Shown in pieces: positions 8,305 to 34,949 of a DNA stretch of 35,146 nucleotides. The notes beneath the pieces are model-generated. The model saw nothing but the letters and a program-made list of their open reading frames with translations, was not told where the DNA came from and ran no database searches. Each line of letters begins with the position of its first letter. Positions within the stretch are counted from its first letter, which is position 1. The position numbers were made by a program, and so were the translations under genes. Origin of the DNA: Nanobdellota archaeon (GTDB taxonomy: Archaea > Aenigmatarchaeota > Aenigmatarchaeia > QMZP01); contig JAHIRU010000074.1 in NCBI GenBank assembly GCA_018818465.1, forward strand, positions 1-35,146. The letters are read 5' to 3'.

Positions 8305-9681
8305 CTATTTTTTCATCCATTTGCTGAAATTGAAAACAAATAATGGAAGCCTTATCAGCTGTTTTGCTGACATCATAGAAAGGACTGATTTAACAGCAAA
8401 CAGACGCATGTAAAAACTCCTGTAGGCCTTTCTTCTATACAGTTGTATTTGATTGCTTGAAAAGTTGGGATAGGAAACAGTTGCTGTCCCCTGTTCAACA
8501 CTTTTCCAATCATCTGACGAAAACCAGCCATTTTTCTTGGCATCTTCATAAAATTTGCTTCCAGGGAACGGGGTTGCTATATAAAATTGGGCAAAATTTA
8601 TTTTCAATTCCTTTGCAAAATTTATGGTATCCATTTCGGTTTTTTCATCAGAACCAGGCAATCCTATTATGAAATGGCCTATAATTTTTAGCCCATTGTC
8701 CCTGGCTGTTTTAGCGGCTTTTTTCGATTGCTCAATTGTTATACCTTTATTGTTCCTATTCAGAACATTTTGGTTGCCTGATTCAAAACCAAACGAAATC
8801 ATTTGGCAACCAGATTCCTTCATTTTTTTAGCCAATTCATCATCAAAACAATCTACTCTTGTTGTACAAAACCATTTTACTTTTTTACTTAAACCTTCTT
8901 TCACCATCAAATCACAGAATTTTTTCATGCGTTCCCTATCAAATGTAGCCAATTCATCCCACATCATCCAAACCTTTATTCCTATATCATTGACCAACCA
9001 TTTGAACTGTTCAACCATATATTCTGCTGAATGATATCTAACATTTCTTCCTGCCAGAAGTGGCATTACACAATAAGAACAATTAAACGGACATCCTCTT
9101 CCCGACCTGGCAAAAGTCCATTTTTCTCCCGTCAAAGGGAATCTATATTCTGGTAGAAGATCATATGCAGGAAAAGGCAACGAATCCAAATCAGGCTCTT
9201 GCCAGATACCGCCATCCCATGCTCTGGTAGCAACTCCTTTAACCTTATATTTGCCTTCCAATATGCTCATTACAGGTGTTTCAGCCTCTCCTAATACTGC
9301 GAAATCTATCTGTTTGTGTTTTTCGAGCAAATCTTTATACCTTGATGTTACGTGTTCTCCATACATTATTATTTTAGAACCTGTCAATTTTTTTATCTCA
9401 TCTGCGGTATTCACATCCATCTCTATTGTCGGAGTTGAGGTGTTTATAATCGAAAAATCAGGGCTAAAATTATTTACTATTTTCATACAATCTTCGAATG
9501 AAAGTTTTGAACCCATACAATCAATAAGTTTTAATTCATACTTTTCTCTAACACATCCAGCTATGCTCGCAAAGGCTGTGGGAGGAAACGTATCGAGCCA
9601 TGTATTTTCCTCACTCTGGCATCTTCCATCTCTACTAAATCTGAGGCCAAATGTGGGAGGGTTTAAAACTAAAACTTTCAT
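8305..9681 (-). CDS. B12-binding-domain radical SAM protein (subfamily B, rSAM-B1)
   Basis: 458 aa. N-terminus NPPTFGLRFSRDGRCQ, then INTSTPTIE, YGEHVT, CxxxCxxC = CPFNCSYC and FGFESGNQ. Its start overlaps the stop of the upstream GT-C gene in an ATGA (9678-9681), preceded by AGGTGAT. Confidence 0.9.
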   Translation of the reverse strand: MKVLVLNPPTFGLRFSRDGRCQSEENTWLDTFPPTAFASIAGCVREKYELKLIDCMGSKLSFEDCMKIVNNFSPDFSIINTSTPTIEMDVNTADEIKKLTGSKIIMYGEHVTSRYKDLLEKHKQIDFAVLGEAETPVMSILEGKYKVKGVATRAWDGGIWQEPDLDSLPFPAYDLLPEYRFPLTGEKWTFARSGRGCPFNCSYCVMPLLAGRNVRYHSAEYMVEQFKWLVNDIGIKVWMMWDELATFDRERMKKFCDLMVKEGLSKKVKWFCTTRVDCFDDELAKKMKESGCQMISFGFESGNQNVLNRNNKGITIEQSKKAAKTARDNGLKIIGHFIIGLPGSDEKTEMDTINFAKELKINFAQFYIATPFPGSKFYEDAKKNGWFSSDDWKSVEQGTATVSYPNFSSNQIQLYRRKAYRSFYMRLFAVKSVLSMMSAKQLIRLPLFVFNFSKWMKK

Positions 9682-11180
9682 TCTATCACCTGATTTTTAG
9701 TGTTAATATTTAAATTCAAACTCTTATAAATTATGAATATTTTTTGCCCATTTTGATAATTTTCATAAACGTTTTCAAACAAATCACTATTTTCTAATTG
9801 CGTAAAGATTGAAGATTGAAATTCGGTGTCAGGTGGAATTCTGTTGGATCGGTATTCGATTTGTATAGGCAATTTTATACCAAACAGTTCAGGATTGTAA
9901 TAATAGTGAACAGGGTGTCTGTCATATTCACCGTATATACTTATTATAACATAATCCACATCGTTATTCAGAATCCATTCCTCAACATTTTGTTCTATTT
10001 CTCCCCTTTCGATTTTACTTCCAGGAAAATCTACAACATTGAGATGGAACAATGAAAGATAGTAAGGCGATACTTCACTTGCTATGATAGCATCTTCTGG
10101 CAGATTTGAAACATAACCACTTGCAGGAATTCTTGCTAAATGATGATTTGAATCAAAAGATAATGTCCAAGCTGAAAACACAACACCGAATATAACAAAC
10201 AGAACAAAAACAATTTTTGTTATAATTTTGCTTTTTTCTTTTAACCAATCAATTCCTAGTGCTGCAATACATGAATATATTGGAAACATTGCAAACAAGA
10301 ATCTGTCCTCTTTAAAATTCAATACTTGAAAAACTGCAAAGAATACAAAGAATGTTATTAAAAGCAATTCGTTCTGCGGAGTTCTTTTTTTCCAGATTTT
10401 ATAAATTCCGAATAAGAAAAACACTGACCAAGGAATAGCCGCAAATCTTATGATATAATAAAAAATATTGGTTCCACTCACACCTGAAACAAAAAACAGG
10501 TGCTCTAAACCAGAACTTCCAGATAGAATATATACAACTAGAAAAACAGTCAGAAAGACAAACAGAAATGTTGATATCGACTCTAAGAATTCTTTTGTCT
10601 TTACTAAATTTAATTTTTTCTTAAATAACAGATAAATAAAGTAAACCGGTATCAATATTGCTCCAGTAAACTTTGTTAGCATTGCCAACGCAGTAGAAAT
10701 TCCAAGCAGTGTTGATTTTTTCTTTTTTTCTGTTAATTCAAAGAAAAACAATATTGATAATAAAACAAAAATCGTGAGTAAAGTTTCTACTAAAAGTCTT
10801 TCTGTCCATCTCCAGAAATAAGGAAGCGTTAACAGTATGATTGTTGATACGCATCCACTTCCGATCATTCTCTTTGAAAAAACAAAAGAAACTATTATCA
10901 GCGCTATTGTCAATATCAACGGTAAACCGAATATGATTGCATTAACGCTCGCACCTACTAAAAATGATAGTGAAATAAATAATGGTAAAAGAGGTCCTCT
11001 ATGAAAAACACCTAAAGAGTAATCTCCGTTTAGAATTTCATTACCAAGTGTAAGATATTGTTCTTGATCAGGATAAAAACTATTCCCAGGAAACATTACG
11101 ATATAGAAAATACTGGATAGTATACACACTGTTACCAAGAACTTAATATCGTTCTTTGAAAGGTCTTTTATGGCGTGCAT
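9678..11180 (-). CDS. GT-C fold membrane glycosyltransferase, ArnT/PMT_2 (GT39/GT83)-like (GT-C a)
   Basis: 500 aa. The first ~340 aa are polytopic. The first loop, after TM1, is acidic (FYPDQEQYLTLGNEILNGDY). It carries an ALAMLTKFTG motif ([AG]L[AG]xL[ST][KR], shared by all three paralogs) and a soluble C-terminal domain of ~150 aa. Confidence 0.65.
   Translation of the reverse strand: MHAIKDLSKNDIKFLVTVCILSSIFYIVMFPGNSFYPDQEQYLTLGNEILNGDYSLGVFHRGPLLPLFISLSFLVGASVNAIIFGLPLILTIALIIVSFVFSKRMIGSGCVSTIILLTLPYFWRWTERLLVETLLTIFVLLSILFFFELTEKKKKSTLLGISTALAMLTKFTGAILIPVYFIYLLFKKKLNLVKTKEFLESISTFLFVFLTVFLVVYILSGSSGLEHLFFVSGVSGTNIFYYIIRFAAIPWSVFFLFGIYKIWKKRTPQNELLLITFFVFFAVFQVLNFKEDRFLFAMFPIYSCIAALGIDWLKEKSKIITKIVFVLFVIFGVVFSAWTLSFDSNHHLARIPASGYVSNLPEDAIIASEVSPYYLSLFHLNVVDFPGSKIERGEIEQNVEEWILNNDVDYVIISIYGEYDRHPVHYYYNPELFGIKLPIQIEYRSNRIPPDTEFQSSIFTQLENSDLFENVYENYQNGQKIFIIYKSLNLNINTKNQVIE
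9685..9691 (-). promoter_or_regulatory. Shine-Dalgarno AGGTGAT for rSAM-B1, inside the 3' end of the GT-C a gene
   Basis: The minus strand reads AGGTGATAGAATGA, with the ATG and TGA overlapping. Confidence 0.5.
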
Positions 11181-11186
11181 ATGGAT

Positions 11187-12584
11187 TTATCGGAATACAC
11201 CTTTAAATATCTCAAAACCAGCCTTTATCGTCCATTTTAGTTCGTTTACAGATTTTATTGTAAATAATAGATCTAACATTTTTACTGGCCTGAGATAGAA
11301 ACTTCTGAAAGCCTCTCTTTCATAATAAATAACATCTTTCCTGTTAAGATTATGTAATTTGTAGTAAGTTTCTGCACTAAAAAACCCACCTTCAGAACCA
11401 GATGTTGTTGGTTTTATGAATTCACCATCCCTCTCTATCATCTGATAAAGTTCTGTTCCAGGAAAAGGTATTGTAACAGAGAAATTTGCTATATGAGGAT
11501 TCACATGCTTAGCAAAGCTTATAGTCTTTTCCACATCTTCTTTAGTTTCATACGGCAAACCTATCATGAAAAACCCGTAAGTTATAATCCCTTCTTCTCT
11601 AAACCATCTTATCGCTTGATTGACTTTTTTCAAGTCGAGAGACTTCTTTATAACATTTAATATTTTTTCATCACCAGATTCTATACCAATGCCAACTTTG
11701 AAAACACCTGCCCTTTTCATTTTTTTGACAAGATTCTTAGTTAATCTATCCGCTCTTACACCATTCTGTAAATTTATTTTTATGTCAATTTTTCGCTCTA
11801 TTATCATATCAAGAACTTTCTCAGCGTTTTCCATTATCAAAGTGAAATTATCATCAAGAATATCTATTTGTTTTACGCCATAATCATTAACTAGCATCTC
11901 TATTTCTTCGATTATGTTTTCTGCAGAACGATATCTGAAAACGCGACCAAAGATATTTTTATTACAAAATATACACCCATAAGGACATCCTCTGCTTGTT
12001 AGAATTGGTGACATAGGAACCTTTCTGGATCGAGATTGATACAATTTGAAGTCCGGGAGTAAATCATATGCAGGAAAAGGCAACGAGTCCAAGTCCTTTA
12101 TCAATTCCCTATTAGGATTGTGTTTTATTCTACCCCTATCCTTGAAACTTATGCTTTTCACTTTTGAAAGCGAGTTTAAGTTGTTCAAAAGATCCACTAT
12201 AGTTTCTTCACCCTCGCCTCTAACAACACATAAAGCATCAGAATCCTGTAAGGTTCTTTCTATCATAGAAGTTGCATAAGGTCCTCCTATAATAACTGGT
12301 TTTTTAAGCTCATTTTTAATTTTTTTTGAAAGCTCTACAGCAGCTCTTGCAAGAACAACGTTACTCATTATACCAACTACATCTGGATCGAATTTAGAAA
12401 GTTTTTTAAGAACTCTTTCATTTGTCATCCTGAGAATGTTAGCATCTATTATAATGCATTCTAATCCTCTCTTTCTTAGGACAGCTGCCATATACGCCAA
12501 ACCTATAGGTGGATATATTGTGGCAGTATTGATGCCCTTCGCATAATATGGAAACGGGTTTACAAAAGCAATTCTCATTTTCAT
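11187..12584 (-). CDS. B12-binding-domain radical SAM protein (subfamily A, rSAM-A2)
   Basis: 465 aa. Shows PIGLAYMAAVL, VVGIMS, IIGGPYAT, RGEGEETI, CxxxCxxC = CPYGCIFC and GIGIESGDE. Confidence 0.9.
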   Translation of the reverse strand: MKMRIAFVNPFPYYAKGINTATIYPPIGLAYMAAVLRKRGLECIIIDANILRMTNERVLKKLSKFDPDVVGIMSNVVLARAAVELSKKIKNELKKPVIIGGPYATSMIERTLQDSDALCVVRGEGEETIVDLLNNLNSLSKVKSISFKDRGRIKHNPNRELIKDLDSLPFPAYDLLPDFKLYQSRSRKVPMSPILTSRGCPYGCIFCNKNIFGRVFRYRSAENIIEEIEMLVNDYGVKQIDILDDNFTLIMENAEKVLDMIIERKIDIKINLQNGVRADRLTKNLVKKMKRAGVFKVGIGIESGDEKILNVIKKSLDLKKVNQAIRWFREEGIITYGFFMIGLPYETKEDVEKTISFAKHVNPHIANFSVTIPFPGTELYQMIERDGEFIKPTTSGSEGGFFSAETYYKLHNLNRKDVIYYEREAFRSFYLRPVKMLDLLFTIKSVNELKWTIKAGFEIFKGVFR

Positions 12585-12587
12585 AAT

Positions 12588-13259
12588 TTACCAAAGATTT
12601 TTGAATACTCTCCAAGCATAAACCCAACCCATTCTCCAAATATTTATTCCAGATTCACCATACAGTCTCTTTTTTTCTTGGCTCGAAACTTCTACAATTT
12701 TGTACCCTTTTTTGTAACATTTCATTACCATCTCGGTTTCTACATCAAATATATTTGCTTCAAGCTTTAGGTCTTTAGCTACATCGGTTTTTATAGCTCT
12801 GAAACCGTTTTGTGTGTCGCCTATGGCTGTACGAAATCTCCAATTTATTAATTGGGCAATAGAAATGCTAAGAAACATTCTCATAAATTTACCAAAATCT
12901 CCGTGAAGTTCTTCACTTCCTCCCATAAATCTTGATGCTATTACCATATCTGCATTACCACACTTTATGGGTTGCACTATTTTGGGTATGTCTTCTGGTA
13001 TATGAGATCCGTCTGCATCTATGAAAACTATTATATCCCCGCTGGCATGTTCAATTCCAACCCTTATGCCATCACCCTTTCCTTTACCGTTATCAACAAC
13101 TGTTCTAATGCCCATTTCCTCTGCTATTTCTTTTGTTCTGTCAGTTGATTTTTTCGCAGAAACGACCAATATTTCATCGCCATACGGCTTGACTTTTTCC
13201 AGAATATCCTTTATAGTTCTCTCTTCATTAAAGGTAGGAACAACAATAGACACTTTCAT
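12588..13259 (-). CDS. GT2-family glycosyltransferase, soluble dolichyl/polyprenyl-phosphate sugar synthase-like (GT2 a)
   Basis: 223 aa. Shows VSIVVPTFNEE, a DxD-type FIDADGSH motif and a GT-A fold pattern. No TM segment. Confidence 0.8.
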   Translation of the reverse strand: MKVSIVVPTFNEERTIKDILEKVKPYGDEILVVSAKKSTDRTKEIAEEMGIRTVVDNGKGKGDGIRVGIEHASGDIIVFIDADGSHIPEDIPKIVQPIKCGNADMVIASRFMGGSEELHGDFGKFMRMFLSISIAQLINWRFRTAIGDTQNGFRAIKTDVAKDLKLEANIFDVETEMVMKCYKKGYKIVEVSSQEKKRLYGESGINIWRMGWVYAWRVFKNLW

Positions 13260-13292: not shown

Positions 13293-14246
13293 TTAAATTT
13301 TTGGCTTAACAGGGGTTTTTATCCAAAAAAACAACCCTATTGGCACTGTAATCCAATAACCAAAAACAAGGTAAACAAGCGAAAAACTTATTATCATTCC
13401 TTTTGACATACCAACTAATGGCAAGACAAGCAACAAGAACGTTTCCCTAGTGCCTATGCCTGATACAGAAACAGGTATAAGCTCAATTATTACCATAACG
13501 CTTATGACAGCGAAAATAAATAAATAATTGAACGATATACCAAACGCTAACCCAAAGAATAGGGCCAGCATTATAGAAAACAACCAAATAAAAATATTAA
13601 ATAGAGTTATAGTAAAAAGATTCCTTTTTTTATTTTTTAGTTCTCCAAAAACATCATAGAACCCATAAAAATCCAGCTTTAACTTTTCTTTATATTTGCC
13701 TGGTACAAACAAATTGAATAATGGTTTTAGCAATTTCCTCATGGAATTCTTTCTTGTGAATATGTAAAAACCAACAAAAAAGGCGGCAACAAATCCCAAA
13801 ATCAATCCAAACGATATGATTGTATACCCAAACCATACATTCAGCAGGATGACCCCTATCAGGGCAGAACATAATACAACAGCCAGATCTATTATTCTAT
13901 CAGCAATAACTACGGATAATCTCTTTCCGAATGGTTGCAAATCATCCAGATAAAAAACTTTTATAAAATCTCCAACTCTTCCAGGCGTAATTAATCCTGT
14001 GAATAAACCAATTGACCATATTTTGAAACAATTAAACATACTTTCATCAAAACCGTGTGCATTAATTACCATTTTGAATTTTATTGCCCTCAAAAAGAGA
14101 ATGAAAAAGGCAGAGCCAATGCCTAACAATAAAAAGAAAATATTAATTTGTTGGAAAGATGCTATTATTTTGTCGATTCCAATATTCCAGACAATGTATG
14201 CAAATAAAGCAACACCTATAACAGGCATGTAATTTAAAATTTTCAT
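13293..14246 (-). CDS. UPF0104 / MprF-type flippase-like domain membrane protein (a)
   Basis: 317 aa and polytopic. It carries the two hallmark pseudo-repeat motifs of the family: ITPGRVGDFIK (P-x-x-x-G-[DE]) and IPVSVSGIGTRE (P-x-x-G-x-G-x-x-E). Confidence 0.7.
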   Translation of the reverse strand: MKILNYMPVIGVALFAYIVWNIGIDKIIASFQQINIFFLLLGIGSAFFILFLRAIKFKMVINAHGFDESMFNCFKIWSIGLFTGLITPGRVGDFIKVFYLDDLQPFGKRLSVVIADRIIDLAVVLCSALIGVILLNVWFGYTIISFGLILGFVAAFFVGFYIFTRKNSMRKLLKPLFNLFVPGKYKEKLKLDFYGFYDVFGELKNKKRNLFTITLFNIFIWLFSIMLALFFGLAFGISFNYLFIFAVISVMVIIELIPVSVSGIGTRETFLLLVLPLVGMSKGMIISFSLVYLVFGYWITVPIGLFFWIKTPVKPKI

Positions 14247-14449: not shown

Positions 14450-15391
14450 ATGTATCGAAATAAAAAAATAAGTGTCGCAATGCCGGCATATAATGAAGAA
14501 AAATTAATAGAGAAAGCTATTAAATCCATCCCTGATTTTGTAGATAAATTAATAGTAGTTGATGATGATTCAAAAGACAATACATTTTCTATAGCAAAAA
14601 AATACGAGGGCAAAAGAGTTACAGTAATAAAACATACAAAAAATCAGGGTGTTGGCGGAGCCATAATAACCGGTTTCAAAGAGGCTTTGAAAGAAAAAGC
14701 AGATATAGCTGTTGTAATGGCAGGAGACGCCCAAATGGATCCAAACGATTTACCAAATATATTAGATCCTATAGTAAATAATGTTGTTGACTGCACGAAA
14801 GGGAACAGGTTCCTTCACCCAGAAATTTACAAAAAAATGCCAAAATTCAGATTGTTTGGCAATAGAATTTTAACAATACTGACAAAGATATCGTCCGGAT
14901 ACTATCACATATCTGATCCGCAGAATGGATATGTTGCAGTTTCAAGAAATGTTTTAGAAACAATTGATTGGGGCATGGTTGATAAAAGATTTAGTTTTGA
15001 AAACGATATGTTGATTCATCTCAACGTAAATAATTTTTCAGTGAAAAACATAAAAACAAATCCTATATATGGCGAAGAAAAATCCAAGATAAAAATTCAT
15101 AGTTTTGCACTAAAACTTAGTTTTCTCCTAATAAAAAAGTTTTTCTGGAGAATAAAAGAAAAATATTTTGTAAGAGATTTTCATCCAACATTTATATTTT
15201 TTATAGCAGGTTTCATTATGCTTTTTTTCGGTTTGATTTGGAGCTTGCTTGTTTTGAGGGCAAGATTCATCACGCCTGATATAACATGCGGATCAGTTGT
15301 TCTTTCCGCTTTATTATTGATTTGTGGTTCACAATCAATTTTCACAGGATTCATCCTTGACATGTATGAAAGTAAAACATTAAAAACATAG
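14450..15391 (+). CDS. GT2-family polyprenyl-phosphate glycosyltransferase with two C-terminal TM helices (ArnC/GtrB-like; GT2 b)
   Basis: 313 aa. Shows ISVAMPAYNEE, VVDDDSKD, AGDAQMD, and C-terminal helices FIFFIAGFIMLFFGLIWSLLVL and GSVVLSALLLICGSQSIFTGFIL. Confidence 0.85.
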   Translation: MYRNKKISVAMPAYNEEKLIEKAIKSIPDFVDKLIVVDDDSKDNTFSIAKKYEGKRVTVIKHTKNQGVGGAIITGFKEALKEKADIAVVMAGDAQMDPNDLPNILDPIVNNVVDCTKGNRFLHPEIYKKMPKFRLFGNRILTILTKISSGYYHISDPQNGYVAVSRNVLETIDWGMVDKRFSFENDMLIHLNVNNFSVKNIKTNPIYGEEKSKIKIHSFALKLSFLLIKKFFWRIKEKYFVRDFHPTFIFFIAGFIMLFFGLIWSLLVLRARFITPDITCGSVVLSALLLICGSQSIFTGFILDMYESKTLKT

Positions 15392-15399
15392 TGATAAAA

Positions 15400-16650
15400 A
15401 TGCAAAATAAAACGTTATCTAAGGTTGATTTGATCAGAAATGAACTGGATTTGGAATATAAACAATCCATAATTTTAAAGTACACGTTACTATTGGGTTT
15501 AAGAGAAAAAATACCGCCAAGTATAAGAAACAGGGTTGGATTTTCGTTTGAAAAATTAAAAAATCCAAAAAGAGATTTTCCAATAGACAGAAAAGTACAA
15601 ACACTGGAATACGAAGCTATGAAAAAAAATGTTTCAGAAAAAAAATATCATCTAATGATTAAACCATGGACAACATTCTCGGCATGCTTCACACATGATG
15701 TGGATACATTTTATGATTTAAAGGAAGGAATATCAATCCTCAGAAAAATCGAGAAAAAACATGACATAAAATCAACATGGAATTTTGTTCCAGAGTCAAA
15801 AGAATATAAAATAGATAAAGAACTTTTAAAATCACTTGAAAGAGACGGCCATGAAATAGCATCACATAGTTTAAAGCATGATGGAAAATTCGCTTTTTTG
15901 AGCAAACATGAAAGAAGATTAAGAGTTAGAAAATCAAAGGAAATTTTCAAAAAAATGGGATTCAATATCAATGGTTTCAGGGCGCCCTGGTTACATAGAA
16001 CAAGGGATTTAATATTATTTCTGGAAGAAAATAAATATCTTTGGGATTCTTCATTTCCAGACACTGACAACACAACGATTGGTTACAGAGGAACGGGCTG
16101 TTCTACAGTTTTTCCTTTTCAACCTTTAATCAAAGAAAACAAAGGCTATAGAAAATCAAGCATAATAGAACTGCCTATAACAGTCCCACAGGACTGGAGC
16201 TTAATACACCCAATGAAATTATCAAATGAAAAAATATTATCTTTATGGATTGAGAAGGTTGATTATATAGAAGATGTTGGAGGTCTTGCTCTTTTTTTGA
16301 CACATCCAGCAAAATATGATATCGGGAACAATGAAAGATCATGGATTTACGATGATATTATAAAATATATAAAAAACAAGAAACCATTCATTGGCAGATG
16401 TATTGATGTAGCAGAGAGATGGAAGGCAACCAACGATATTCAGTATAATCTGGATATAAAAAAAATGAACTTGCATATGAAGTCTGAAAGAAGAATAAAG
16501 AATCTAGCCTTCTATATATTTTCACCCAAAAATGAAAAATTGAAGAGCAACGACTGCGAACTTCTGAAATCTGACATTTTTTTCAACAAAAAAAGGTCTC
16601 TATTTTTGGTAAAAAGCCTTGATAGAGAAATGAACATGCACTTCCACTAA
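15400..16650 (+). CDS. polysaccharide deacetylase (NodB homology, CE4) with N- and C-terminal extensions
   Basis: CE4 motifs occur in order: FTHDVDT (Asp-Asp), HSLKHD (H-S-x-x-H) and FRAPW (RxPY-like). The track begins at a GTG at 15391, which overlaps the upstream stop. ATG at 15400, preceded by AGTGAT, is the alternative I list. Confidence 0.8.
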   Translation: MQNKTLSKVDLIRNELDLEYKQSIILKYTLLLGLREKIPPSIRNRVGFSFEKLKNPKRDFPIDRKVQTLEYEAMKKNVSEKKYHLMIKPWTTFSACFTHDVDTFYDLKEGISILRKIEKKHDIKSTWNFVPESKEYKIDKELLKSLERDGHEIASHSLKHDGKFAFLSKHERRLRVRKSKEIFKKMGFNINGFRAPWLHRTRDLILFLEENKYLWDSSFPDTDNTTIGYRGTGCSTVFPFQPLIKENKGYRKSSIIELPITVPQDWSLIHPMKLSNEKILSLWIEKVDYIEDVGGLALFLTHPAKYDIGNNERSWIYDDIIKYIKNKKPFIGRCIDVAERWKATNDIQYNLDIKKMNLHMKSERRIKNLAFYIFSPKNEKLKSNDCELLKSDIFFNKKRSLFLVKSLDREMNMHFH

Positions 16651-20423: not shown

Positions 20424-20434
20424 AACCTTAAAAC

Positions 20435-21856: not shown

Positions 21857-21860
21857 ATCA

Positions 21861-24045: not shown

Positions 24046-24048
24046 ATA

Positions 24049-24053
24049 ACCTC
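24049..24053 (-). promoter_or_regulatory. Shine-Dalgarno GAGGT for the second DegT gene
   Basis: The minus strand reads TAGAGGTTATATG. The stop of rSAM-B3 overlaps the SD. Confidence 0.4.
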
Positions 24054-27389: not shown

Positions 27390-28196
27390 CTAGCGTTTTT
27401 TTCTGAAAAGGAACCAATTGTTCCCCAAACCTTTGACTCTTTTTACATTCAAAAGCTCGAAATAAGGAAAATAATCTTTCATGATATTGCGCATTTCTTC
27501 TACTGTCGCAAATTCATACGGGTAGCCCCCAAGCCAGTCAATCACATCTGTCCTAAAGTTCATGCCCCTTTTTGTTTTGTGATAGTTTCTCACATGTGAG
27601 ACAGGATTTTTAAGCTTGAATGAATAGGCAATCATGTAGGCCGCAATATATGCTGTTTCAATCATATATTTTACTAATTTTGGAGAAGCGTTGTAAAATT
27701 TTTTTATTTTCAGCCATATATATGATCCTTTCAAACCGCCAACCTTATTGTATATGGCTATGTAGTAATAGCCCCCTACCTTTACGCACTTCGCTGAATT
27801 TTTTATGGCATCCAGCATGTTTCCGGTGTGGTGCAAGACACCCCAACTGTAAACAATATCAAATTTACCAAGCTTTTTAACAGTATTGTCATCTAAAATA
27901 GATCCTTCAAAAATCTTCCAGTTGTTTGGGCGTCCAGCGAGTTCATGCATATGATTGCAGCATTTCACAGAAAATTTGTCAACATCAAAGCTAATCACTT
28001 TTTTTGCGCCAAGCCTTTGAGCAGTGAATGAAAACAAGCCGCTTCCGCATCCGATGTCCAAGAAGCTTTTTCCCTTCAAATCACTGATTTTCATGAAATC
28101 AGTTAGCGATTTTTCTGCAAAATCAAACCTGTCTTTATTCAAACTTTTTATGAAGTGACACCAGTTTTTTCCAAAAGAGAACGCCTTTTCGCTCAT
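27390..28196 (-). CDS. class I SAM-dependent methyltransferase
   Basis: 268 aa. Motif I is FLDIGCGSGLFS, followed by VISFDVD and YSWGVLHH, with a C-terminal DVIDWLGGYPYEFA. Confidence 0.85.
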   Translation of the reverse strand: MSEKAFSFGKNWCHFIKSLNKDRFDFAEKSLTDFMKISDLKGKSFLDIGCGSGLFSFTAQRLGAKKVISFDVDKFSVKCCNHMHELAGRPNNWKIFEGSILDDNTVKKLGKFDIVYSWGVLHHTGNMLDAIKNSAKCVKVGGYYYIAIYNKVGGLKGSYIWLKIKKFYNASPKLVKYMIETAYIAAYMIAYSFKLKNPVSHVRNYHKTKRGMNFRTDVIDWLGGYPYEFATVEEMRNIMKDYFPYFELLNVKRVKGLGNNWFLFRKKR

Positions 28197-28228: not shown

Positions 28229-28247
28229 TAAGCTATTAATTAAAGTG

Positions 28248-29576
28248 ATGTTTATGAATTCAGAACAGATTTCCATGGTTGTTGTTTTGATGATAATAGT
28301 AGCTTTATGGCTACCTACAATAGGATACACAGAAACAGATGACAGCGTTGTTTACGCAGAACTTGCACAATCTTTTGCTTCAGGAGAAGGCTATTATGCT
28401 AATGGAGAACCGCATGCGCATCATCTGCCACTTTTCCCGATTATCGCTGCTCCACTGACTTATATTGCTTCACCAATGTTTGCACTGAGATTGGCAAGCC
28501 TGTTATTGGGAATTTTTTCACTTGTTGCCTGGTTTTACCTAAGAAAGGAAATATTTCCAAAAGAAAAAGGACCATATTTTTTATTGTTATTTTTATCACC
28601 AATGTTAGTGCTGTTTACGTTTTTCAGGGGCCTTGCTGAATCCCCAATGATATTATTTTCACTACTTTCTGTACTGTTTATATTGAGAGCAGAAAGGACT
28701 TCGAACAAATACTATTATTATCTTTCAGGAATTTCGTTTGGATTGGCTGCCCTTAGCCGTTATGCAGGAGTTGTTTTGGGAGTTGTTTACATCTTATGGT
28801 TTTTCACAGAAAGAAAGCGCTACAACAAACATTTCATAGCAAGCATGGCTATAGGCTTTTTTATTTTTTCTCTGCTGCTGATAGAAAACTTCCTAGTTTT
28901 CGGGAATCCCATACAATTCCTATCAACATTTGGAGAAGTAACATCTTCATCACTGCCTTTACTTTTCAAGATGCCTTTGCACTTTTTCATATTCCTACCA
29001 GCCATATTGATAATGTCGGGAATACTATTGATACCGTTTGTGATAAAGGGCATTGAAAGAGACAAATCACTCTTCATAATGCTCGTTGTTTTCGGTCTTC
29101 TCTTCGCGTCTCTAGGCAACCTAAGATTTAGGTATGTGGTGCCAATCATACCTTTTGTTTTGATATTAGCATATAACGGGTATACCAAAATAAAGGGAAA
29201 CTGGAGGCATCTGATAGTACTGGGAATACTGCTGAACATTCTTATCACCCCGTACTTCGTCAGCGGCGAATTCAAGGATTTTGCAGACAACATTTACCAG
29301 ACACCAACGCAATGGGGTCAGGCAGGTTTGCGCGGACAGGAAGCAAATAACTGGATAAACAACAACGTTCCAGAAGGATCGATAATAGCTACAAGGCATG
29401 CGGATATATGGTCATCATATTTCAGAGACGATATAAAACTCGTACAGTTAGGAGAAGATTCTGATTATATAATCTATGATCAGGTTTTGCCTGATTCTGA
29501 TTATTATGTACCTTCAGGTTCAGAAGAAGTTTTTTCAACTTCTTATCCAATAACGACCATTTATAGAATAAAGTAG
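28248..29576 (+). CDS. GT-C fold membrane glycosyltransferase, ArnT/PMT_2-like (GT-C c)
   Basis: About 442 aa. The first loop is acidic (YTETDDSVVYAELAQSFASGEGYY). It carries a GLAALSRYAG motif, about 10 helices and a ~100-aa C-terminal soluble domain. The start is ambiguous: GTG 28245 (track), ATG 28248 or ATG 28254. Confidence 0.65.
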   Translation: MFMNSEQISMVVVLMIIVALWLPTIGYTETDDSVVYAELAQSFASGEGYYANGEPHAHHLPLFPIIAAPLTYIASPMFALRLASLLLGIFSLVAWFYLRKEIFPKEKGPYFLLLFLSPMLVLFTFFRGLAESPMILFSLLSVLFILRAERTSNKYYYYLSGISFGLAALSRYAGVVLGVVYILWFFTERKRYNKHFIASMAIGFFIFSLLLIENFLVFGNPIQFLSTFGEVTSSSLPLLFKMPLHFFIFLPAILIMSGILLIPFVIKGIERDKSLFIMLVVFGLLFASLGNLRFRYVVPIIPFVLILAYNGYTKIKGNWRHLIVLGILLNILITPYFVSGEFKDFADNIYQTPTQWGQAGLRGQEANNWINNNVPEGSIIATRHADIWSSYFRDDIKLVQLGEDSDYIIYDQVLPDSDYYVPSGSEEVFSTSYPITTIYRIK

Positions 29577-29586: not shown

Positions 29587-30504
29587 ATGAATAAGAAAAA
29601 CTGGATTCAGATTATTGTCGGTGTTATAATACTGGCTGTTTTTCTTAAATTAATAAATCTGGCAGATTCGCTACACATCGTTTCGCAGGCGATATGGCCA
29701 ATTTTTGTTATAGCAATGCTGACTTCAGTAGTAACCCAGGTATTAAGAGGTTTAAGATTTTACCATATCTCAAGAAGCATAAACGTTGATACAGGAATAA
29801 AGAAAAGCATTCTAGTCCAATTTATGACAAGCTTGGCTGGCATAGCAACGCCAGCCAAAATCGGGGAAGGGGGAAAGATATTGTTTTTCAAAAACAAAAA
29901 CAAACTGACGTTTTCGTTCATCCTGGAAAAAATAGCGGACTTCTCATTGCAATTCCTTATTGGATTTTTAGCCATATTCACGTTCCAAATTTATGTCGAT
30001 CTTTTCTATTTTGTATTGGTGCTATTCATAATCGGAATAATAGCGCTTTTCAAGATAGATAAAATATTGAATTTTGTGCTCAGAAAAAACGAGTTTGAGA
30101 AGGGATGGTTTTTCAATATATTGAAAGGCATAAACAAAAAAAGTTTTTTAATTTTCTCTGTTCTGACATTCCTTTTATGGTTTAACATAAACCTTTCTGT
30201 GTGGGTTTACGCTTTGTCGCTTGGCCTGGTTTTGGATATGTTTTTGCTGTTCCAGATATTCACAGTATCAAACCTTATGGGGACAATTTCAGGGACACCT
30301 GGTGGGATTGGATCCACGCAAATAGTCTTTACTTTCATGATGGTGACCTTTATGGGAGTTTCAAGCTCTCTTGCAGGAGCTGTTGCCATAATTTCTGTAA
30401 TAGGAATATATATCATATATACAATACTAACATTGATTGGATTTTTATTATACAGAAGATTTTTTAAAAAACAGGATTCAGCTCTTCCTGGCAACAATAA
30501 ATAG
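29587..30504 (+). CDS. UPF0104 / MprF-type flippase-like domain membrane protein (c)
   Basis: 305 aa and polytopic. Motifs ATPAKIGEGGK and GTPGGIGSTQ. Confidence 0.68.
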   Translation: MNKKNWIQIIVGVIILAVFLKLINLADSLHIVSQAIWPIFVIAMLTSVVTQVLRGLRFYHISRSINVDTGIKKSILVQFMTSLAGIATPAKIGEGGKILFFKNKNKLTFSFILEKIADFSLQFLIGFLAIFTFQIYVDLFYFVLVLFIIGIIALFKIDKILNFVLRKNEFEKGWFFNILKGINKKSFLIFSVLTFLLWFNINLSVWVYALSLGLVLDMFLLFQIFTVSNLMGTISGTPGGIGSTQIVFTFMMVTFMGVSSSLAGAVAIISVIGIYIIYTILTLIGFLLYRRFFKKQDSALPGNNK

Positions 30505-31119
30505 GTTTTTTTGAAGCATCTTATTCTTGAATAATTTGTCCATTCTGGTCTTGTAGAATATCTTGGCCAAAAAATTAAAAACTGCAACGAATCCCAGGTT
30601 TAGTTTTTTCAGTTCAACAATCTCAAACCCTTCTTTTATTAGCAGGTCTTTTATCCTCTTTTCACTGAAAGACTGGCAGTGTCCCCATTTGTGGAATCTG
30701 GATCCACAGTCAGGACAGGTAACAGTCGATGCTTTCAGATTTTCATCATAGTTTGTCGTGAACACAGCATAACAGTCTGGCTTCAATACCCTGTTTATCT
30801 CTTTCAGGCATTTTTCAAGATCCTGGTCGTTCAGGTGCTCTATTAACTCTGTGCAGAACACAGTATCGAATGCATGATTCTCAAACTGTAAATTTGTGCA
30901 GTCACCTTTTATGACATTACCACCCTTTGGCACAAGGTCTATTGCGGTTGCGTTCACTTTTTTTGCCAGTGCGCCGCTGCCTGCGCCCACATCCAAAATC
31001 CTTTTTCCTATATACTTCCTTGACATCCTTATGACTACATTAGAAACGAGATCTCCACTGAATTCTTCATTATAATCTGACCAGAACCTTTCCTGATCAT
31101 TTTCATGAAATTCCTTCAT
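30478..31119 (-). CDS. class I SAM-dependent methyltransferase with an embedded Cys/His knuckle
   Basis: 213 aa. Motif I is ILDVGAGSGALA. CPDCGSRFHKWGHC is inserted after the core beta-strand VFTT. The 3' end overlaps the convergent UPF0104 c gene by 27 nt. Confidence 0.82.
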   Translation of the reverse strand: MKEFHENDQERFWSDYNEEFSGDLVSNVVIRMSRKYIGKRILDVGAGSGALAKKVNATAIDLVPKGGNVIKGDCTNLQFENHAFDTVFCTELIEHLNDQDLEKCLKEINRVLKPDCYAVFTTNYDENLKASTVTCPDCGSRFHKWGHCQSFSEKRIKDLLIKEGFEIVELKKLNLGFVAVFNFLAKIFYKTRMDKLFKNKMLQKNLFIVARKS

Positions 31120-31205
31120 TTTATCACTATTGGTTTTATATTAAGGATTAATATAAAACTTTTATTATTAATTATTCGCTACATGTTGTTTATAAAGGGG
31201 ATAAT

Positions 31206-32309
31206 ATGCACATATTGATGATAAATCACGAATTCCCCCCTCTTGGAGGAGGCGGAGGAAATGCAAATTATTATATAGCCAGAGAACTTGTGAAACTGGG
31301 GCACAGTGTTGACATAGTTACATCAGGTTTTTCAGGCCTAAAAAGCGAAACAATCAATGGTTTTAAAGTTCATAGAATAAAAACAAAAAGAAAACATGAA
31401 ACTCACGCAACAACATTAGAAATGTTAAGCTTTGTTAAAAATTCCCGCAAATATTGTAAAAAGTTGATGAAAAATAAAAAATATGATATTATTCAATGTT
31501 TCTTTACTCTTCCTGCGGGATTAACAGGATTTCTCCTAACAAAAAAATTCAAAGTTCCCATGGTCATAAGGATGGGCGGATCAGACGTGCCTGGGTATGA
31601 CCCATATCGTTTCAAGCTTCTTTACAAGCTTCTAATACCATTATACAAAAAAGTATGGAGGCGTGCAGACTGTCTTGTAGTCAACAGCCAAAAATTGAAA
31701 GATCTTCTCTTGAAAAGCAAGCAGATGAAAGTTGATATAATATACAATGGTGCTGATTCAGAAGAGCTAAAAGCCAACAGAAAATCAGACGGTAAAACAA
31801 TAATATGTATATCCCGTCTTGTCAAGCGAAAAGGAATAGATTATCTTTTGAGAGCTCTAAAGGATAGAAAGGATTTCCATCTGATTATCATAGGAGACGG
31901 CGAAGAGAGACAAAACTTAGAAAACCTTGCTAATAAATTAGGAATAAACAGCAGAACAGAGTTCATAGGTGCAGTTGAACATAACGGTGTTATAAAATAT
32001 CTAAACAAAGCAGATATATTCGTTCTTCCGTCTTTTGCTGAAGGAATGTCCAACGCACTTTTAGAAGCTATAGCCAACGGACTTCCGGTTATTGTAACAG
32101 ATGTTGGCGGATCAAAAGAGCTTGTGAAAAATAACGGTGTTATAATTCAGCCAGGAAACGAAGAACAGCTCAAAGACGCAATTGAAAAACTCCTCTCAAA
32201 CGAGAAGCTAAGAAAGCAGATGTCAAAAGAAAGCCTGGAAATTGCAAAAAAATTCACATGGCAGAATATAGCAAAAGAATATGAAAACCTTTACAGGGGA
32301 TTGATATAG
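31206..32309 (+). CDS. GT4-family (GT-B fold) glycosyltransferase
   Basis: 367 aa. Shows HEFPPLGGGGGNANYY and the E-x7-E motif EGMSNALLEAIANGLPVIVTDVGG. Confidence 0.85.
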   Translation: MHILMINHEFPPLGGGGGNANYYIARELVKLGHSVDIVTSGFSGLKSETINGFKVHRIKTKRKHETHATTLEMLSFVKNSRKYCKKLMKNKKYDIIQCFFTLPAGLTGFLLTKKFKVPMVIRMGGSDVPGYDPYRFKLLYKLLIPLYKKVWRRADCLVVNSQKLKDLLLKSKQMKVDIIYNGADSEELKANRKSDGKTIICISRLVKRKGIDYLLRALKDRKDFHLIIIGDGEERQNLENLANKLGINSRTEFIGAVEHNGVIKYLNKADIFVLPSFAEGMSNALLEAIANGLPVIVTDVGGSKELVKNNGVIIQPGNEEQLKDAIEKLLSNEKLRKQMSKESLEIAKKFTWQNIAKEYENLYRGLI

Positions 32310-32310
32310 T

Positions 32311-34086
32311 ATGTGTGGAATAATAGGATTCGCTGGATTCATGGACAGAGTACTTTTGAAGAACATGGCAGATGTAATAAGGCATCGCGGACCAGACGAT
32401 CATGGTTATTTTTTTGATAAAAACATCTCTTTAGGCGCAAGACGTCTATCCATTATAGACATCAAAGGCAGCAAACAGCCAATTTACAATGAAAACAAAG
32501 ACATTGTTCTCGTTTTCAATGGTGAAATTTACAACTTCCAGAAGCTCCGTGAGGAGCTTCATCAATTGGGACACAATTTTTCAACAGACGGTGATGGTGA
32601 AGTTATTGTTCATTTATACGAACAGTATGGTGAAGAGTGCGTAACAAAGCTTAATGGAATGTTTGCATTCGCAATCTGGGATGCAAGAAAGAAAAAACTT
32701 TTCATAGCACGTGATCGCTTAGGAATTAAGCCATTGTATTACACTCAGATAGGAAACAGGTTCCTGTTTGGATCTGAGATAAAAAGCATATTGCAGTACA
32801 GGGGATACAAGCCTGACACAGACAGAAACGCATTAAGTGATTATCTAACATTTAGATACGTTCCAGGACCACTGACGATGTTTAAAAACATCTTCAAGCT
32901 TCTTCCATGCCACACGCTTACATATCAAGATGGGAAAGTCGAAACAAAAAAATATTGGTATTTTGCTTTCAATTCCACAAACAAAAGCGAAGATTTCTAT
33001 GTAAAAACACTCAAAAATCTTCTTGAAGATTCAATCAAATCAAGACTAATCAGCGAAGTTCCTCTAGGAGCTTACTTGTCAGGAGGTCTTGACTCAAGTT
33101 TTGTTGTCGGTCTTATGTCAAAGATTTCACAAGAACCAATCAACACATTCACTGTAACTTTTGATGACATAGAATTCAATGAAGCTCCTTATGCAAAAAG
33201 TATTGCAGAGCATTTTAACACAAATCACAGATCGCTTGAGGTGAAACAAAAGAGCATAAACATTCTTCCAAAAGTTATATATCACATGGACGAACCTGTC
33301 TCAGATCCTGCAACAATTCCTACTTACATGATGGCAGAGCTGACAAAGAAGCATGTCACAGTCGTCCTGACAGGAGAGGGGTCTGATGAGCTTTTCGGAG
33401 GTTATCCACAATATCGTGCCGCAATGATAGATAAAAAGTTAGGGCCTTTCAGAAAGATCATACCAAAGCTTACAAAAAATGATTTGATGAAAAGATTCGA
33501 TCAGGATTATACAGACTGGATTTCGATCTTTACAGAAAAAGAAAAGCAAGAACTTCTTAAAGAAAAACCAGAAAAAAATAACACTGTTATACAAAGGCCT
33601 TATGATTTAAATCAGCTTCTCTATTTCGATATAAAGCAATGGCTTCCTGATGATCTTCTCACAAAAGTAGACAAGACAACAATGGCTCATTCTGTCGAAG
33701 CGCGTGTGCCTTTTCTTGACCACATAATGGTTGAGTTTGCAGGAACAGTACCGCCAAAATATAAGACAGGCATGCGCCAGGAAAAGATTATAATCCGCAA
33801 AGCAATGCAAGGAATCGTGCCAAAGGAAACAATTAACAGAAAGAAGCAGGGATTCCATGTACCGATAGAGAAATGGTTCCAGGGAGAGCTGAAAGAAGTC
33901 GCACAGAACATGCTATCAGAGAGTGTCATAGAGAAGCGCGGATACTTCCAATATCCGTATGTGAAATCATTGTTAAACAAGTTTGACAGCTCACCAAAGT
34001 ACTACAGCAGACAGTTATGGAATTTATTCAATTTAGAGTTGTGGCATAGAATTTTCATCGATCAAGAAAAACAAAAGAAAATTTAA
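32311..34086 (+). CDS. asparagine synthase (glutamine-hydrolysing) family amidotransferase, AsnB-like
   Basis: 591 aa. It has the N-terminal nucleophile MCGIIGF and the PP-loop SGGLDSS. It starts 1 nt after the GT4 stop. Confidence 0.88.
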   Translation: MCGIIGFAGFMDRVLLKNMADVIRHRGPDDHGYFFDKNISLGARRLSIIDIKGSKQPIYNENKDIVLVFNGEIYNFQKLREELHQLGHNFSTDGDGEVIVHLYEQYGEECVTKLNGMFAFAIWDARKKKLFIARDRLGIKPLYYTQIGNRFLFGSEIKSILQYRGYKPDTDRNALSDYLTFRYVPGPLTMFKNIFKLLPCHTLTYQDGKVETKKYWYFAFNSTNKSEDFYVKTLKNLLEDSIKSRLISEVPLGAYLSGGLDSSFVVGLMSKISQEPINTFTVTFDDIEFNEAPYAKSIAEHFNTNHRSLEVKQKSINILPKVIYHMDEPVSDPATIPTYMMAELTKKHVTVVLTGEGSDELFGGYPQYRAAMIDKKLGPFRKIIPKLTKNDLMKRFDQDYTDWISIFTEKEKQELLKEKPEKNNTVIQRPYDLNQLLYFDIKQWLPDDLLTKVDKTTMAHSVEARVPFLDHIMVEFAGTVPPKYKTGMRQEKIIIRKAMQGIVPKETINRKKQGFHVPIEKWFQGELKEVAQNMLSESVIEKRGYFQYPYVKSLLNKFDSSPKYYSRQLWNLFNLELWHRIFIDQEKQKKI

Positions 34087-34949
34087 TGATGGTCTTTGTT
34101 CTTATCAGTTGAAATTAAATCTGCAACCAGTCCTATGAATCCTATTTGCAATGCAGCGAGCAACAAGAATACAGAAAGCTCTGCGATATTATGGAAGAAT
34201 AATATGTCATGAACAAACCATGCTATTCCCAAAATGCCTACAATAGCTGCTGTAGGGATGAAGATCTTCAATGGATTGAAATACATCATCATCTTCATAA
34301 AGAGTTTATTGAAGCCGAAAAAGTCAGAAGCTTTCATCTTTGATTTTCCTTTCCTTTTTTCATAATTTATTGGAACATATTTCACATGGTAATCATTGCA
34401 TAACGATGCAAGCGTTATTGTTGATGTAAAAGAAAATCCTGAAGGATACAAATGGAAGAATCTCATTGCAAGATCCTTCTTGAAAATCCTCAAACCCGAA
34501 TTAAGATCAGGTATGTTTGTACCTGCTATATAATTTGCGAATTTTGATAAAACATATTTTGCTGGACGCCTTGAAATGGGTATAGAAACATTTTTACCTG
34601 TTCTTGCACCAACAACCATATCATAATGCTCTAGATGAGGCAAAAGATCTGGAATAGCACTTTCAGGATAGGTTCCGTCAGCGTCTGTAATCATTATCCA
34701 ATCACCTTTAGCGTTCTTTATCCCTGTCTTAAGTGCAGCACCGTAGCCTTTGTTATGAGGATGATTTAATTTATGAACAAAACTTATTTTTTCCAATATT
34801 TCAGCGGTTTTGTCTTTGGAACCGTCGTTAACAACTATGATTTCATATTTATGTTTTGTAGAATCCATTGTTTTCTTTAATCTGTTCATCACTTCTTCTA
34901 CTGCTTGCTCTTCATTGTAAGCTGGAATAACAACACTTATCATAGTCAT
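34083..34949 (-). CDS. GT2-family polyprenyl-phosphate glycosyltransferase with C-terminal TM helices (GT2 c)
   Basis: 288 aa. Shows ISVVIPAYNEE, VVNDGSKD and ITDADGTYP. The C-terminal helices are IFIPTAAIVGILGIAWFV and LSVFLLLAALQIGFIGLVADLI. Confidence 0.85.
   Translation of the reverse strand: MTMISVVIPAYNEEQAVEEVMNRLKKTMDSTKHKYEIIVVNDGSKDKTAEILEKISFVHKLNHPHNKGYGAALKTGIKNAKGDWIMITDADGTYPESAIPDLLPHLEHYDMVVGARTGKNVSIPISRRPAKYVLSKFANYIAGTNIPDLNSGLRIFKKDLAMRFFHLYPSGFSFTSTITLASLCNDYHVKYVPINYEKRKGKSKMKASDFFGFNKLFMKMMMYFNPLKIFIPTAAIVGILGIAWFVHDILFFHNIAELSVFLLLAALQIGFIGLVADLISTDKNKDHH

Follow-up and report, generated by a model that had tools for sequence, protein, structure and literature searches.

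Three sets of glycosylation genes in one island

We analyzed a 35,146-nt stretch of DNA (hereafter the window) spanning contig JAHIRU010000074.1 of the Nanobdellota archaeon assembly GCA_018818465.1, which GTDB places in the Aenigmatarchaeota. The window is a cell-surface glycan island of 29 genes, with a coding share of 95% and a widest intergenic gap of 361 nt. Within 25 kb it holds three genes for family 2 glycosyltransferases (GT2), three for membrane proteins of the UPF0104 family and three for PMT_2-type glycosyltransferases of the GT-C class, all nine above the Pfam gathering cut-offs. This threefold set had been proposed in an earlier note made from the DNA letters, and hidden Markov models (HMMs) of Pfam and NCBIfam confirmed the families at all nine positions. 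The note had overlooked the genes for B12-binding-domain radical S-adenosylmethionine (SAM) enzymes that are found with each GT2 and with two GT-Cs; seven lie in the island, six of them complete in the window. These genes, and a deacetylase gene beside one GT2, are as follows (lengths in amino acids, aa; scores in bits):

9678-11180 (-): GTC1, PMT_2 GT-C with a C-terminal soluble domain, 500 aa (PF13231, E 4e-11)
25520-27262 (-): GTC2, PMT_2 GT-C, 580 aa (PF13231, E 7e-15; PF02366, E 2e-5)
28245-29576 (+): GTC3, PMT_2 GT-C, 443 aa (PF13231, E 1.4e-13)
12588-13259 (-): GT2_1, GT2 of 223 aa (PF00535, E 1e-25)
14450-15391 (+): GT2_2, GT2 of 313 aa (PF00535, E 6e-27)
34083-34949 (-): GT2_3, GT2 of 288 aa (PF00535, E 1e-35)
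13293-14246 (-): UPF1, stand-alone UPF0104/LPG_synthase_TM protein, 317 aa (PF03706, E 1.6e-36; TIGR00374, 96.6 bits)
18201-19091 (-): UPF2, UPF0104 protein (PF03706, E 1.3e-22; TIGR00374, 54 bits)
29587-30504 (+): UPF3, UPF0104 protein (PF03706, E 4e-29; TIGR00374, 59.5 bits)
312-1709 (+): rSAM_A, B12-binding-domain radical SAM (Pfam)
8305-9681 (-): rSAM_B, radical SAM of the same type (PF02310, PF04055; sub-threshold scores of 230 bits, HpnJ-like, and 129 bits, AprD4-like)
11187-12584 (-): rSAM_C, the same, between GT2_1 and GTC1 (PF02310, PF04055; BchE/HpnJ-like at about 200 bits, where the cut-offs are 481-578)
16681-18192 (+): rSAM_D, the same, third gene of the GT2_2 operon (PF02310, PF04055; Sden_1168 family 225 bits and HpnJ 182, both below cut-off)
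20435-21856 (-): rSAM_E, the same (Pfam; HpnJ-like 263 bits, cut-off 578)
24053-25450 (-): rSAM_F, the same (Pfam)
35021-35146 (-): C-terminal 41 codons of a seventh radical SAM gene, directly upstream of GT2_3
15391-16650 (+): CE4/DUF2334-type deacetylase (PF01522, E 3e-7; PF10096, E 2e-6, both barely above the gathering score)

One of the three sets is contiguous. UPF1 is the first gene of a minus-strand operon that runs UPF1-GT2_1-rSAM_C-GTC1-rSAM_B-GT4-racemase, in which the first four genes are separated by 33, 3 and 6 nt and the start of rSAM_B overlaps the stop of GTC1 by 4 nt. The other two sets are split across operons. GT2_2 heads a plus-strand operon with the deacetylase, whose start overlaps the GT2_2 stop, and rSAM_D; convergent with it is a 9-kb operon with GTC2 as its first and UPF2 as its last gene, the interior of which (19131-25450, minus strand) encodes an FAD amine-oxidase-like protein, rSAM_E, a FemAB-like protein, a DegT aminotransferase and rSAM_F. 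UPF3 starts 10 nt downstream of GTC3, and GT2_3 lies 3.6 kb away on the opposite strand. Each GT2 has one radical SAM gene in its operon, and GTC1 and GTC2 each adjoin one. Of the three parallel routes suggested by the earlier note, one is clear as a contiguous operon.

Three copies of each family in 25 kb are more than chance would give. Even in the glycan-rich flanks of related loci, UPF0104 genes occur at about 0.03-0.19 and GT-C genes at 0.13-0.37 per 10 kb. Paralogs within the GT2, UPF0104 and GT-C families are merely 19-29% identical; the three sets are therefore old and diverged, and we rejected a recent triplication. No GtrA-type or ArnE/F-type (SMR/EamA) flippase was matched by Pfam among the 29 genes of the window, and the position that these small flippases hold in known systems is filled here by the UPF0104 proteins. 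Scans of the window for tRNAs, Rfam families and tandem repeats gave nothing relevant.

The island is also present in other assemblies. The GT2_3 protein is identical on JAHJTQ010000060.1 of the metagenome-assembled genome (MAG) GCA_018829405.1, and contigs that are nearly the same were found in GCA_018816045.1 and in a number of groundwater metagenomes. The proteins closest to UPF1 (66% identity) and GTC1 (61%) are encoded in the same gene order and carry the label Nanoarchaeota archaeon, which makes a DPANN source probable; the window itself has no marker gene.

Families, folds and motifs of the three components

By homology, the GT2s are polyprenyl-phosphate glycosyltransferase-like enzymes. 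The best match of all three in the PDB was the Dol-P-Man (dolichyl-phosphate mannose) synthase (DPMS) of P. furiosus (5MLZ; E 1e-18 for GT2_1 and GT2_2, 3e-19 for GT2_3). GT2_3 is the most ArnC/GtrB/DPMS-like of the three, matching ArnC over nearly its full length (9HWJ, E 4e-17, residues 3-273) and GtrB (5EKP, E 2e-14). The best NCBIfam matches of the three were AglJ, PpgS, the dolichyl-phosphate (Dol-P) hexose transferase and ArnC, all below their equivalog cut-offs, with AglJ scores of 85-134 bits against a cut-off of 325. Hydropathy placed a C-terminal transmembrane (TM) hairpin in GT2_2 (helices 247-263 and 278-294) and in GT2_3 and none in GT2_1, in agreement with the two hairpins proposed in the earlier note. 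GT2_1, whose best matches were AglJ, PpgS and the Dol-P hexose transferase, each below cut-off, is predicted to be a Dpm1/AglJ-like dolichyl-phosphate glycosyltransferase that lacks a TM anchor. The DxD signature assigned to every GT2 does not extend to GT2_2, whose canonical column reads A-G-D93-A-Q (residues 91-95) with no literal DxD; its DDD38-40 is an earlier nucleotide-binding motif. One relative (L009) has D-G-D-A-Q at this position.

The UPF0104 proteins scored 126.7 (UPF1), 81.1 (UPF2) and 102.5 bits (UPF3) with PF03706 (cut-off 33.4), and all exceeded the 43.2-bit cut-off of TIGR00374, which NCBI names a flippase-like domain(-containing protein). Searches of the PDB with the UPF1 sequence (phmmer) and with a UPF0104 profile returned no match. 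An AlphaFold2 (AF2) model of UPF1 (pLDDT 83, pTM 0.80) was then informative: the top six Foldseek matches in the PDB were all MprF (7DUW, 7F47, 9GOE, 9J8S, 9J8Q and 6LVF; TMq 0.59-0.66, probability 1.00), and the next-ranked match had E>1. The positive-inside count of UPF1 was clear-cut, at 24 versus 1 on crude hydropathy segments. Of the two motifs that the earlier note had ascribed to all three proteins, P-x-x-x-G-[DE] is present throughout (PGRVGD88, PANLGE109, PAKIGE89), whereas PGGxGxx[EQ] is literal in two and replaced by PVSVSGIGTRE in UPF1. We rejected MprF proper as an identity for these proteins: the aminoacyl-phosphatidylglycerol (PG) synthase domain (DUF2156) was absent from all window proteins by Pfam, and bifunc_MprF scored 21.7 bits against a cut-off of 600.

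For the GT-Cs, a profile built from 11 relatives matched ArnT (5EZM) at E 3e-16, and the AF2 model of GTC1 (pLDDT 78, pTM 0.79) had ArnT (5F15) as its top Foldseek match (E 3.7e-7), so both profile and fold bear out the GT-C assignment. Further Foldseek matches of the model were STT3, ALG12, ALG9, AglB, DPY19, AftA and Pmt4, which are GT-C enzymes with lipid-linked donors; the donors of GT-C enzymes are polyprenyl phosphates. All three proteins have the acidic first loop noted earlier, reading DQEQY38 in GTC1, DQGQH48 in GTC2 (within WDQGQH) and DDSVV32 in GTC3 (within TDDSVVYAE). The conserved first-loop wDeeqY of the profile aligns on GPDEGRY of ArnT, its Asp falling on the periplasmic D55/E56, and by this homology the loop would face outward. 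The [AG]L[AG]xL[ST][KR] motif, described for all three, is literal in two (ALAMLTK, GLAALSR) and deviates in GTC2, where ALGIMSK has M for L. The open reading frame (ORF) of GTC3 starts with GTG at 28245; 28248, the start given in the earlier note, is the next ATG.

Single-sequence searches were less productive for this family. A phmmer search of the three GT-C sequences against the PDB gave no match, GTC1 and GTC2 had no match at all in NCBIfam, and GTC3 showed sub-threshold scores with the LA_3751 family (33.8 bits, cut-off 200) and Agl23 (22 bits, cut-off 126). Homologs of GTC1 numbered 2 proteins in a word-indexed search and 67 in a profile search, and an ortholog-like protein of GTC2 is encoded at L008:11010-12578. 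Orthology to ArnT (GT83) was rejected for the GT-Cs, which have no equivalog-level match and have fold and superfamily in common with it.

Conserved linkage, radical SAM genes and the rest of the island

The earlier note's proposal had been tied to the co-occurrence of the three families elsewhere, and UPF0104 genes do stand near GT2 and GT-C genes in other genomes. In the nearest relative (L013:377-3571, Nanoarchaeota MAG contig JBDRJQ010000026.1), where the UPF1 homolog is 66% identical, UPF0104, GT2 and GT-C genes are contiguous. In the loci of the four closest UPF1 homologs (L006-L009, 33-47% identity), both GT2 and PMT_2 genes lie beside UPF0104 in 4/4, often several of each, and L008 has GT2-UPF-PMT_2-rSAM all in one direction. 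Loci of more distant homologs look different. In L011 and L012, whose genes are of bacterial type, UPF0104 has a GT2 as its partner or lacks both partners. There, an FrhB/FdhB-like iron-sulfur flavoprotein follows UPF0104 instead of a GT-C (L011:8990-10823, L012:9116-13214), with a hexapeptide transferase or methyltransferase in between and SPOR, MurB and MurA-type genes as neighbors; L012 also encodes a 685-aa protein that had no Pfam match.

A wider scan took in 80 UPF0104 loci, which belong to DPANN lineages, to Methanomicrobiales and Methanosarcinales and to a number of bacterial phyla. A GT2 was present in 65 of them and within 1 kb in 50, and the GT2 density fell about ninefold with distance, from 3.78 per 10 kb within 1 kb to 0.25-0.75 farther out. 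GT-C genes, detected with an HMM of low sensitivity built from the window and its relatives, occurred in 33/80 loci at a density of 0.80 per 10 kb within 1 kb versus 0.13-0.37 beyond (about 3-6-fold), and 32 loci had both partners. In addition, the 761-aa protein P0045, encoded on a metagenome contig in ENA, naturally joins a GT2_1-like domain (33% identity to GT2_1, E 5e-26) and a GTC1-like PMT_2 domain in a single chain, a Rosetta-stone fusion that ties the make step to the transfer step. The genomic association of UPF0104 with GT2 and GT-C is real.

The radical SAM proteins are 27-35% identical to each other and keep CxxxCxxC and GGxH in all cases; identity to those of related loci is at most 37%, too low for the assignment of orthologs. 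The gene cut by the window's end, which translates as ...KRAYREFYLRP..., the C-terminal motif of this family, is complete at L174:13816-15213 (465 aa, PF02310 and PF04055). HpnJ was the best NCBIfam match for five of the six window proteins, and all six were far below cut-off. In a profile search of the PDB, the closest matches were AprD4 (6FD2, 1e-51), the uncharacterized 9CCB and OxsB (5UL2, 1e-34), and the methylases TokK, TsrM and CysS ranked lower. AprD4 acts as a sugar diol-dehydratase and is not known to use cobalamin; OxsB contracts a sugar ring.

Around 80 metagenomic relatives of rSAM_C, taken from the first 600 pattern matches screened, the GT2 density was 2.56 per 10 kb within 500 nt and 0.37-0.78 farther away (3-7-fold), and that of further B12-binding-domain radical SAMs was 2.70 versus 0.09-0.79, the longest arrays having six such genes; the linkage to GT-C and UPF0104 was only weak. 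At one UPF0104 locus (L010), a radical SAM gene overlaps the UPF0104 gene. As a tentative possibility, the unit may be a quartet in which a radical SAM enzyme edits the sugar, on its lipid carrier or as a nucleotide sugar, before the UPF0104 flip and the GT-C transfer; by analogy with AprD4, OxsB, HpnJ and Cds, it might methylate the sugar at carbon, remove an oxygen or contract the ring. Radical SAM density around the UPF0104 genes of the 80 loci had no fall-off with distance, and in the UPF-GT2-GT-C series of L013 no radical SAM gene stands between GT2 and GT-C. Because these genes are linked to GT2, show no such fall-off around UPF0104 and are missing between the genes of L013, the radical SAM seems to be an accessory that often joins the GT2 step, inserted into the core triad and not part of the core. 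We found no paper in the searchable literature on a link between radical SAM enzymes and these glycosylation genes.

The same mix of UPF0104, radical SAM, GT2 and GT-C genes was seen in two Patescibacteria MAGs (L085:8565-10939, L087:9962-14075), whose accession series (JAHI/JAHJ) and isolate names resemble those of the window's MAGs, so that a single study may have produced all of them. This shared gene mix hints at DPANN-CPR sharing or a common lifestyle need. If the quartet were true, ultra-small DPANN archaea and Patescibacteria with this gene mix would have a radical-made surface-sugar repertoire that depends on scavenged cobalamin.

The remaining genes of the window, assigned by Pfam, are as follows:

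2071-3357 (+): Wzx-type flippase
3350-6324 (+): epimerase/dehydratase, DegT aminotransferase and hexapeptide acyltransferase
6327-7016 (-): Asp/Glu racemase
7072-8244 (-): GT4 glycosyltransferase
19131-20423 (-): FAD amine-oxidase-like protein (sub-threshold match to PRK07233; weakly similar to UDP-galactopyranose mutase)
21861-22901 (-): FemAB-like protein (pepcterm_femAB, 199 bits, NCBIfam)
22891-24045 (-): DegT aminotransferase
27390-28196 (-): SAM-dependent methyltransferase between GTC2 and GTC3 (Methyltransf_23/31/11)
30478-31119 (-): second SAM-dependent methyltransferase (Methyltransf_23/31/11)
31206-32309 (+): GT4 glycosyltransferase
32311-34086 (+): AsnB-type amidotransferase

The genes at 2071-6324 (+), from the Wzx-type flippase through the acyltransferase, form a bacillosamine-like acetamido-sugar set; they probably serve the main lipid-linked glycan, which the three GT-C routes would decorate. 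The FemAB-like protein is closest to the PEP-CTERM/XrtA-associated FemAB family, and its presence together with the Asp/Glu racemase and the AsnB-type amidotransferase suggests that the glycan is decorated with amino acids, possibly of the D form, or with amides. The FAD amine-oxidase-like gene is directly upstream of UPF2 in the same operon. Past the right end of the window and the seventh radical SAM gene, the longer contig k141_554202 (L174:15356-21104) encodes a UDP-glucose/GDP-mannose dehydrogenase, a protein of 457 aa that faintly matches pectate lyase, five or six small ORFs that had no Pfam match and a restriction-modification-like fusion of an N6/N4 methyltransferase with Mrr.

A make-flip-transfer proposal and known systems

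Given the observed family and fold of the three components, their conserved linkage and the GT2+GT-C fusion, we propose that the three sets make, edit, flip and transfer dolichyl-phosphate-linked monosaccharides. On the cytoplasmic side of the membrane, a Dpm1/AglJ/ArnC-like GT2 would take a sugar from its nucleotide donor and attach it to dolichyl phosphate. On the same side the lipid-linked sugar would then be edited, by the CE4/DUF2334 deacetylase in the GT2_2 route and probably, in all routes, by the radical SAM enzyme beside each GT2. The stand-alone MprF-fold UPF0104 protein would carry the charged lipid to the outer leaflet, and an ArnT/PMT-like GT-C would hand the sugar to an outside acceptor, most likely a glycan or glycoprotein from the island's Wzx/GT4/amino-sugar route. 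The methyltransferases, the FemAB-like enzyme, the racemase and the AsnB-type amidotransferase would decorate this product further. Here we infer the lipid carrier, the sugars, the flippase activity, the order of steps, the acceptor and the pairing of each GT2 with a particular flippase and GT-C.

We put the probability of this whole model at about 0.6, and several points count against it. The sole cargo demonstrated for the MprF fold is aminoacyl-phosphatidylglycerol, carried by MprF. None of the nine GT2, UPF0104 and GT-C proteins reaches an NCBIfam equivalog cut-off, just one of the three sets is contiguous, and the positive-inside counts of the GT-Cs on crude hydropathy segments (15/14, 22/17 and 12/13) give no clear orientation. 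The counts over the 80 loci take in related genomes separately (about 14 from Methanoregula) and come from home-made HMMs and naive ORF calls. In Haloferax volcanii, AglD-made mannose still needs the Wzx-like AglR despite the UPF0104 domain of AglD (PMC3871713, PMC5898192), and a Wzx-type gene is also in the window (2071-3357). The cargo of the MprF fold, shown or strongly supported only for head-group-modified phospholipid (MprF structures, GpgF), favors a different reading that we hold to be unlikely: at least the GT2_2-deacetylase-rSAM_D-UPF2 group, and perhaps all sets, would make and flip a modified glycolipid with an amino-sugar or cyclitol head group on an archaeol-type lipid, like MprF, GpgSDF/HexSDF and HpnI/K/J/L, and the GT-Cs would serve otherwise. 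A glycosyltransferase with a DUF2334/CE4 deacetylase and UPF0104 does mirror GpgSDF and the MA0797/8 context of Makarova et al., the added radical SAM mirrors HpnI-HpnK-HpnJ-HpnL, and, besides the HpnJ matches of the radical SAMs, UPF1 weakly matches HpnL. However, the HpnJ (182-263 vs 578) and HpnL (27 vs 196) scores are far below cut-off, and the GT2s resemble DPMS, ArnC and GtrB, not GpgS (a GT4) or, at equivalog level, HpnI. A head-group pathway also sits poorly with the enrichment of GT-C, whose donors are polyprenyl phosphates, beside UPF0104 and its fusion to GT2 in one relative.

It is also conceivable, though quite improbable, that UPF0104 acts as a membrane anchor or activator of GT2, especially of the TM-less GT2_1, as a split AglD, and that the Wzx-type protein (2071-3357) or an unlinked factor translocates the product. 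In 50 of the 80 loci, a GT2, mostly a short one of about 230-250 aa, is found no more than 1 kb from the UPF1-type gene, the two are fused in Euryarchaeota (AglD), and both the dependence of AglD-made mannose on AglR and the Wzx-type gene in the window would fit such a role. Yet the island has three UPF0104 genes although GT2_2 and GT2_3 possess TM hairpins of their own, the partner of UPF3 is a GT-C and not a GT2, domains of the MprF fold translocate lipids, and one Wzx for four cargoes would be less economical than dedicated flippases. That no functional triads exist at all, the families having merely accumulated in a glycan island with coincidental counts of three, we regard as very improbable. 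The different arrangement of the three sets, the 19-29% identity of the paralogs and the commonness of GT2 genes in glycan loci would agree with coincidence, but the density of GT2 and GT-C declines with distance from UPF0104, the collinear UPF-GT2-GT-C order recurs in relatives, the GT2+GT-C fusion exists, and the same archaeal neighborhood has been published.

The make-flip-transfer model bears on a gap in lipid-linked glycosylation. The flippases for Dol-P-Man and Dol-P-Glc in the endoplasmic reticulum are not known, and the bacterial candidates are only of the GtrA and ArnE/F types. The island, its relatives and the GT2+GT-C fusion count as independent evidence from genomes for a second and widespread class of such flippases, that of the UPF0104/MprF fold, and they supply compact operons for expression and testing, namely UPF1-GT2_1-GTC1 and the radical-SAM-free L013 relative.

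Among characterized three-component systems, the window shares with ArnC/ArnD/ArnE-F/ArnT a GT2 with a C-terminal TM hairpin, a CE4-type deacylase that would act on the lipid-linked sugar and a GT-C of the ArnT fold; GtrB/GtrA/GtrC and CsbB/GtcA/YfhO are likewise comparable. By homology, it has the DPMS/ArnC/GtrB-type GT2 expected of such systems, and its GT-Cs have the acidic first-loop residue. ArnE/F, of the SMR type, and GtrA are small, whereas the putative flippase here has the MprF fold and a length of 300 aa. In place of the undecaprenyl phosphate of those systems, dolichyl phosphate presumably serves as the carrier, and the radical SAM enzymes are extra. The deacetylase at 15391-16650, which scored 28.2 bits with DUF2334 (cut-off 26) and 30.8 bits with Polysacc_deac_1 (cut-off 23.1), stands where ArnD and GpgD do in their pathways.

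The Hpn system combines a GT2 (HpnI), a deacetylase (HpnK, of a different deacetylase family from that in the window), a B12-binding-domain radical SAM enzyme acting on a lipid-linked amino sugar (HpnJ) and a UPF0104 protein (HpnL); HpnJ contracts the ring of lipid-linked glucosamine. The window differs in having GT-C enzymes and in being archaeal. We rejected an Hpn module at this locus, as HpnJ scored 182-263 bits against 577.6 and HpnL 27.4 against 195.65, and there is no hopanoid context: Pfam found neither squalene-hopene cyclase (shc) nor other hpn genes in the window. GpgSDF of P. aeruginosa (PMC12713373), whose product is glucosaminyl-PG, consists of a GT4, a COG3233 deacetylase and a UPF0104 predicted flippase. 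It and HexSDF of C. difficile have the combination of glycosyltransferase, COG3233/DUF2334 deacetylase and UPF0104, and the window deacetylase also matches DUF2334. Unlike the DPMS-type GT2 beside that deacetylase, however, GpgS belongs to the GT4 family and glycosylates a membrane phospholipid, and its pathway has no GT-C step.

In archaea, a make-flip-transfer route has been described by experiment in Haloferax volcanii: Dol-P-mannose is made by AglD, moved outward with the help of the Wzx-like AglR, to which the flip is attributed, and transferred to the N-glycan by AglS (PMC3871713). AglD combines a GT2 and a UPF0104 domain in one protein, whereas the two are separate genes in the window; AglS is a separate membrane transferase that adds the sugar outside, as we propose for the GT-Cs. 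No Agl protein was matched at equivalog level in the window. A 2022 preprint terms the UPF0104 domain PplT and describes fusions to glycosyltransferases and a single copy in most prokaryotes. Makarova et al. (2015; PMC5898192, section 3.4) predicted archaeal UPF0104 to be a glycosylation flippase and described its conserved neighborhood with the PMT/STT3-like MJ_1079 and the AglD-like GT2 MJ_1080 (arCOG00899-arCOG00563-arCOG00897), and the flippase role inferred in the earlier note is a sound re-derivation of that prediction. At the family level, the same three components are seen in the window, in L006-L009 and in L013, and the second UPF0104 context of that paper, a polysaccharide deacetylase with a glycosyltransferase (MA0797/8), is matched by GT2_2, the deacetylase and UPF2. 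That study was computational, described one set per locus and mentioned no B12-binding-domain radical SAM, whereas the island here has three diverged sets and seven radical SAM genes. While the make-flip-transfer design was already predicted in 2015, what is new is the threefold repetition and, above all, the radical SAM pairing in a reduced DPANN genome. If functional, this pairing would point to unfamiliar sugar chemistry on the surfaces by which DPANN and candidate phyla radiation (CPR) cells attach to their hosts, and would carry the idea of radical editing of lipid-linked sugars, as for HpnJ and Cds, past hopanoids and calditol.

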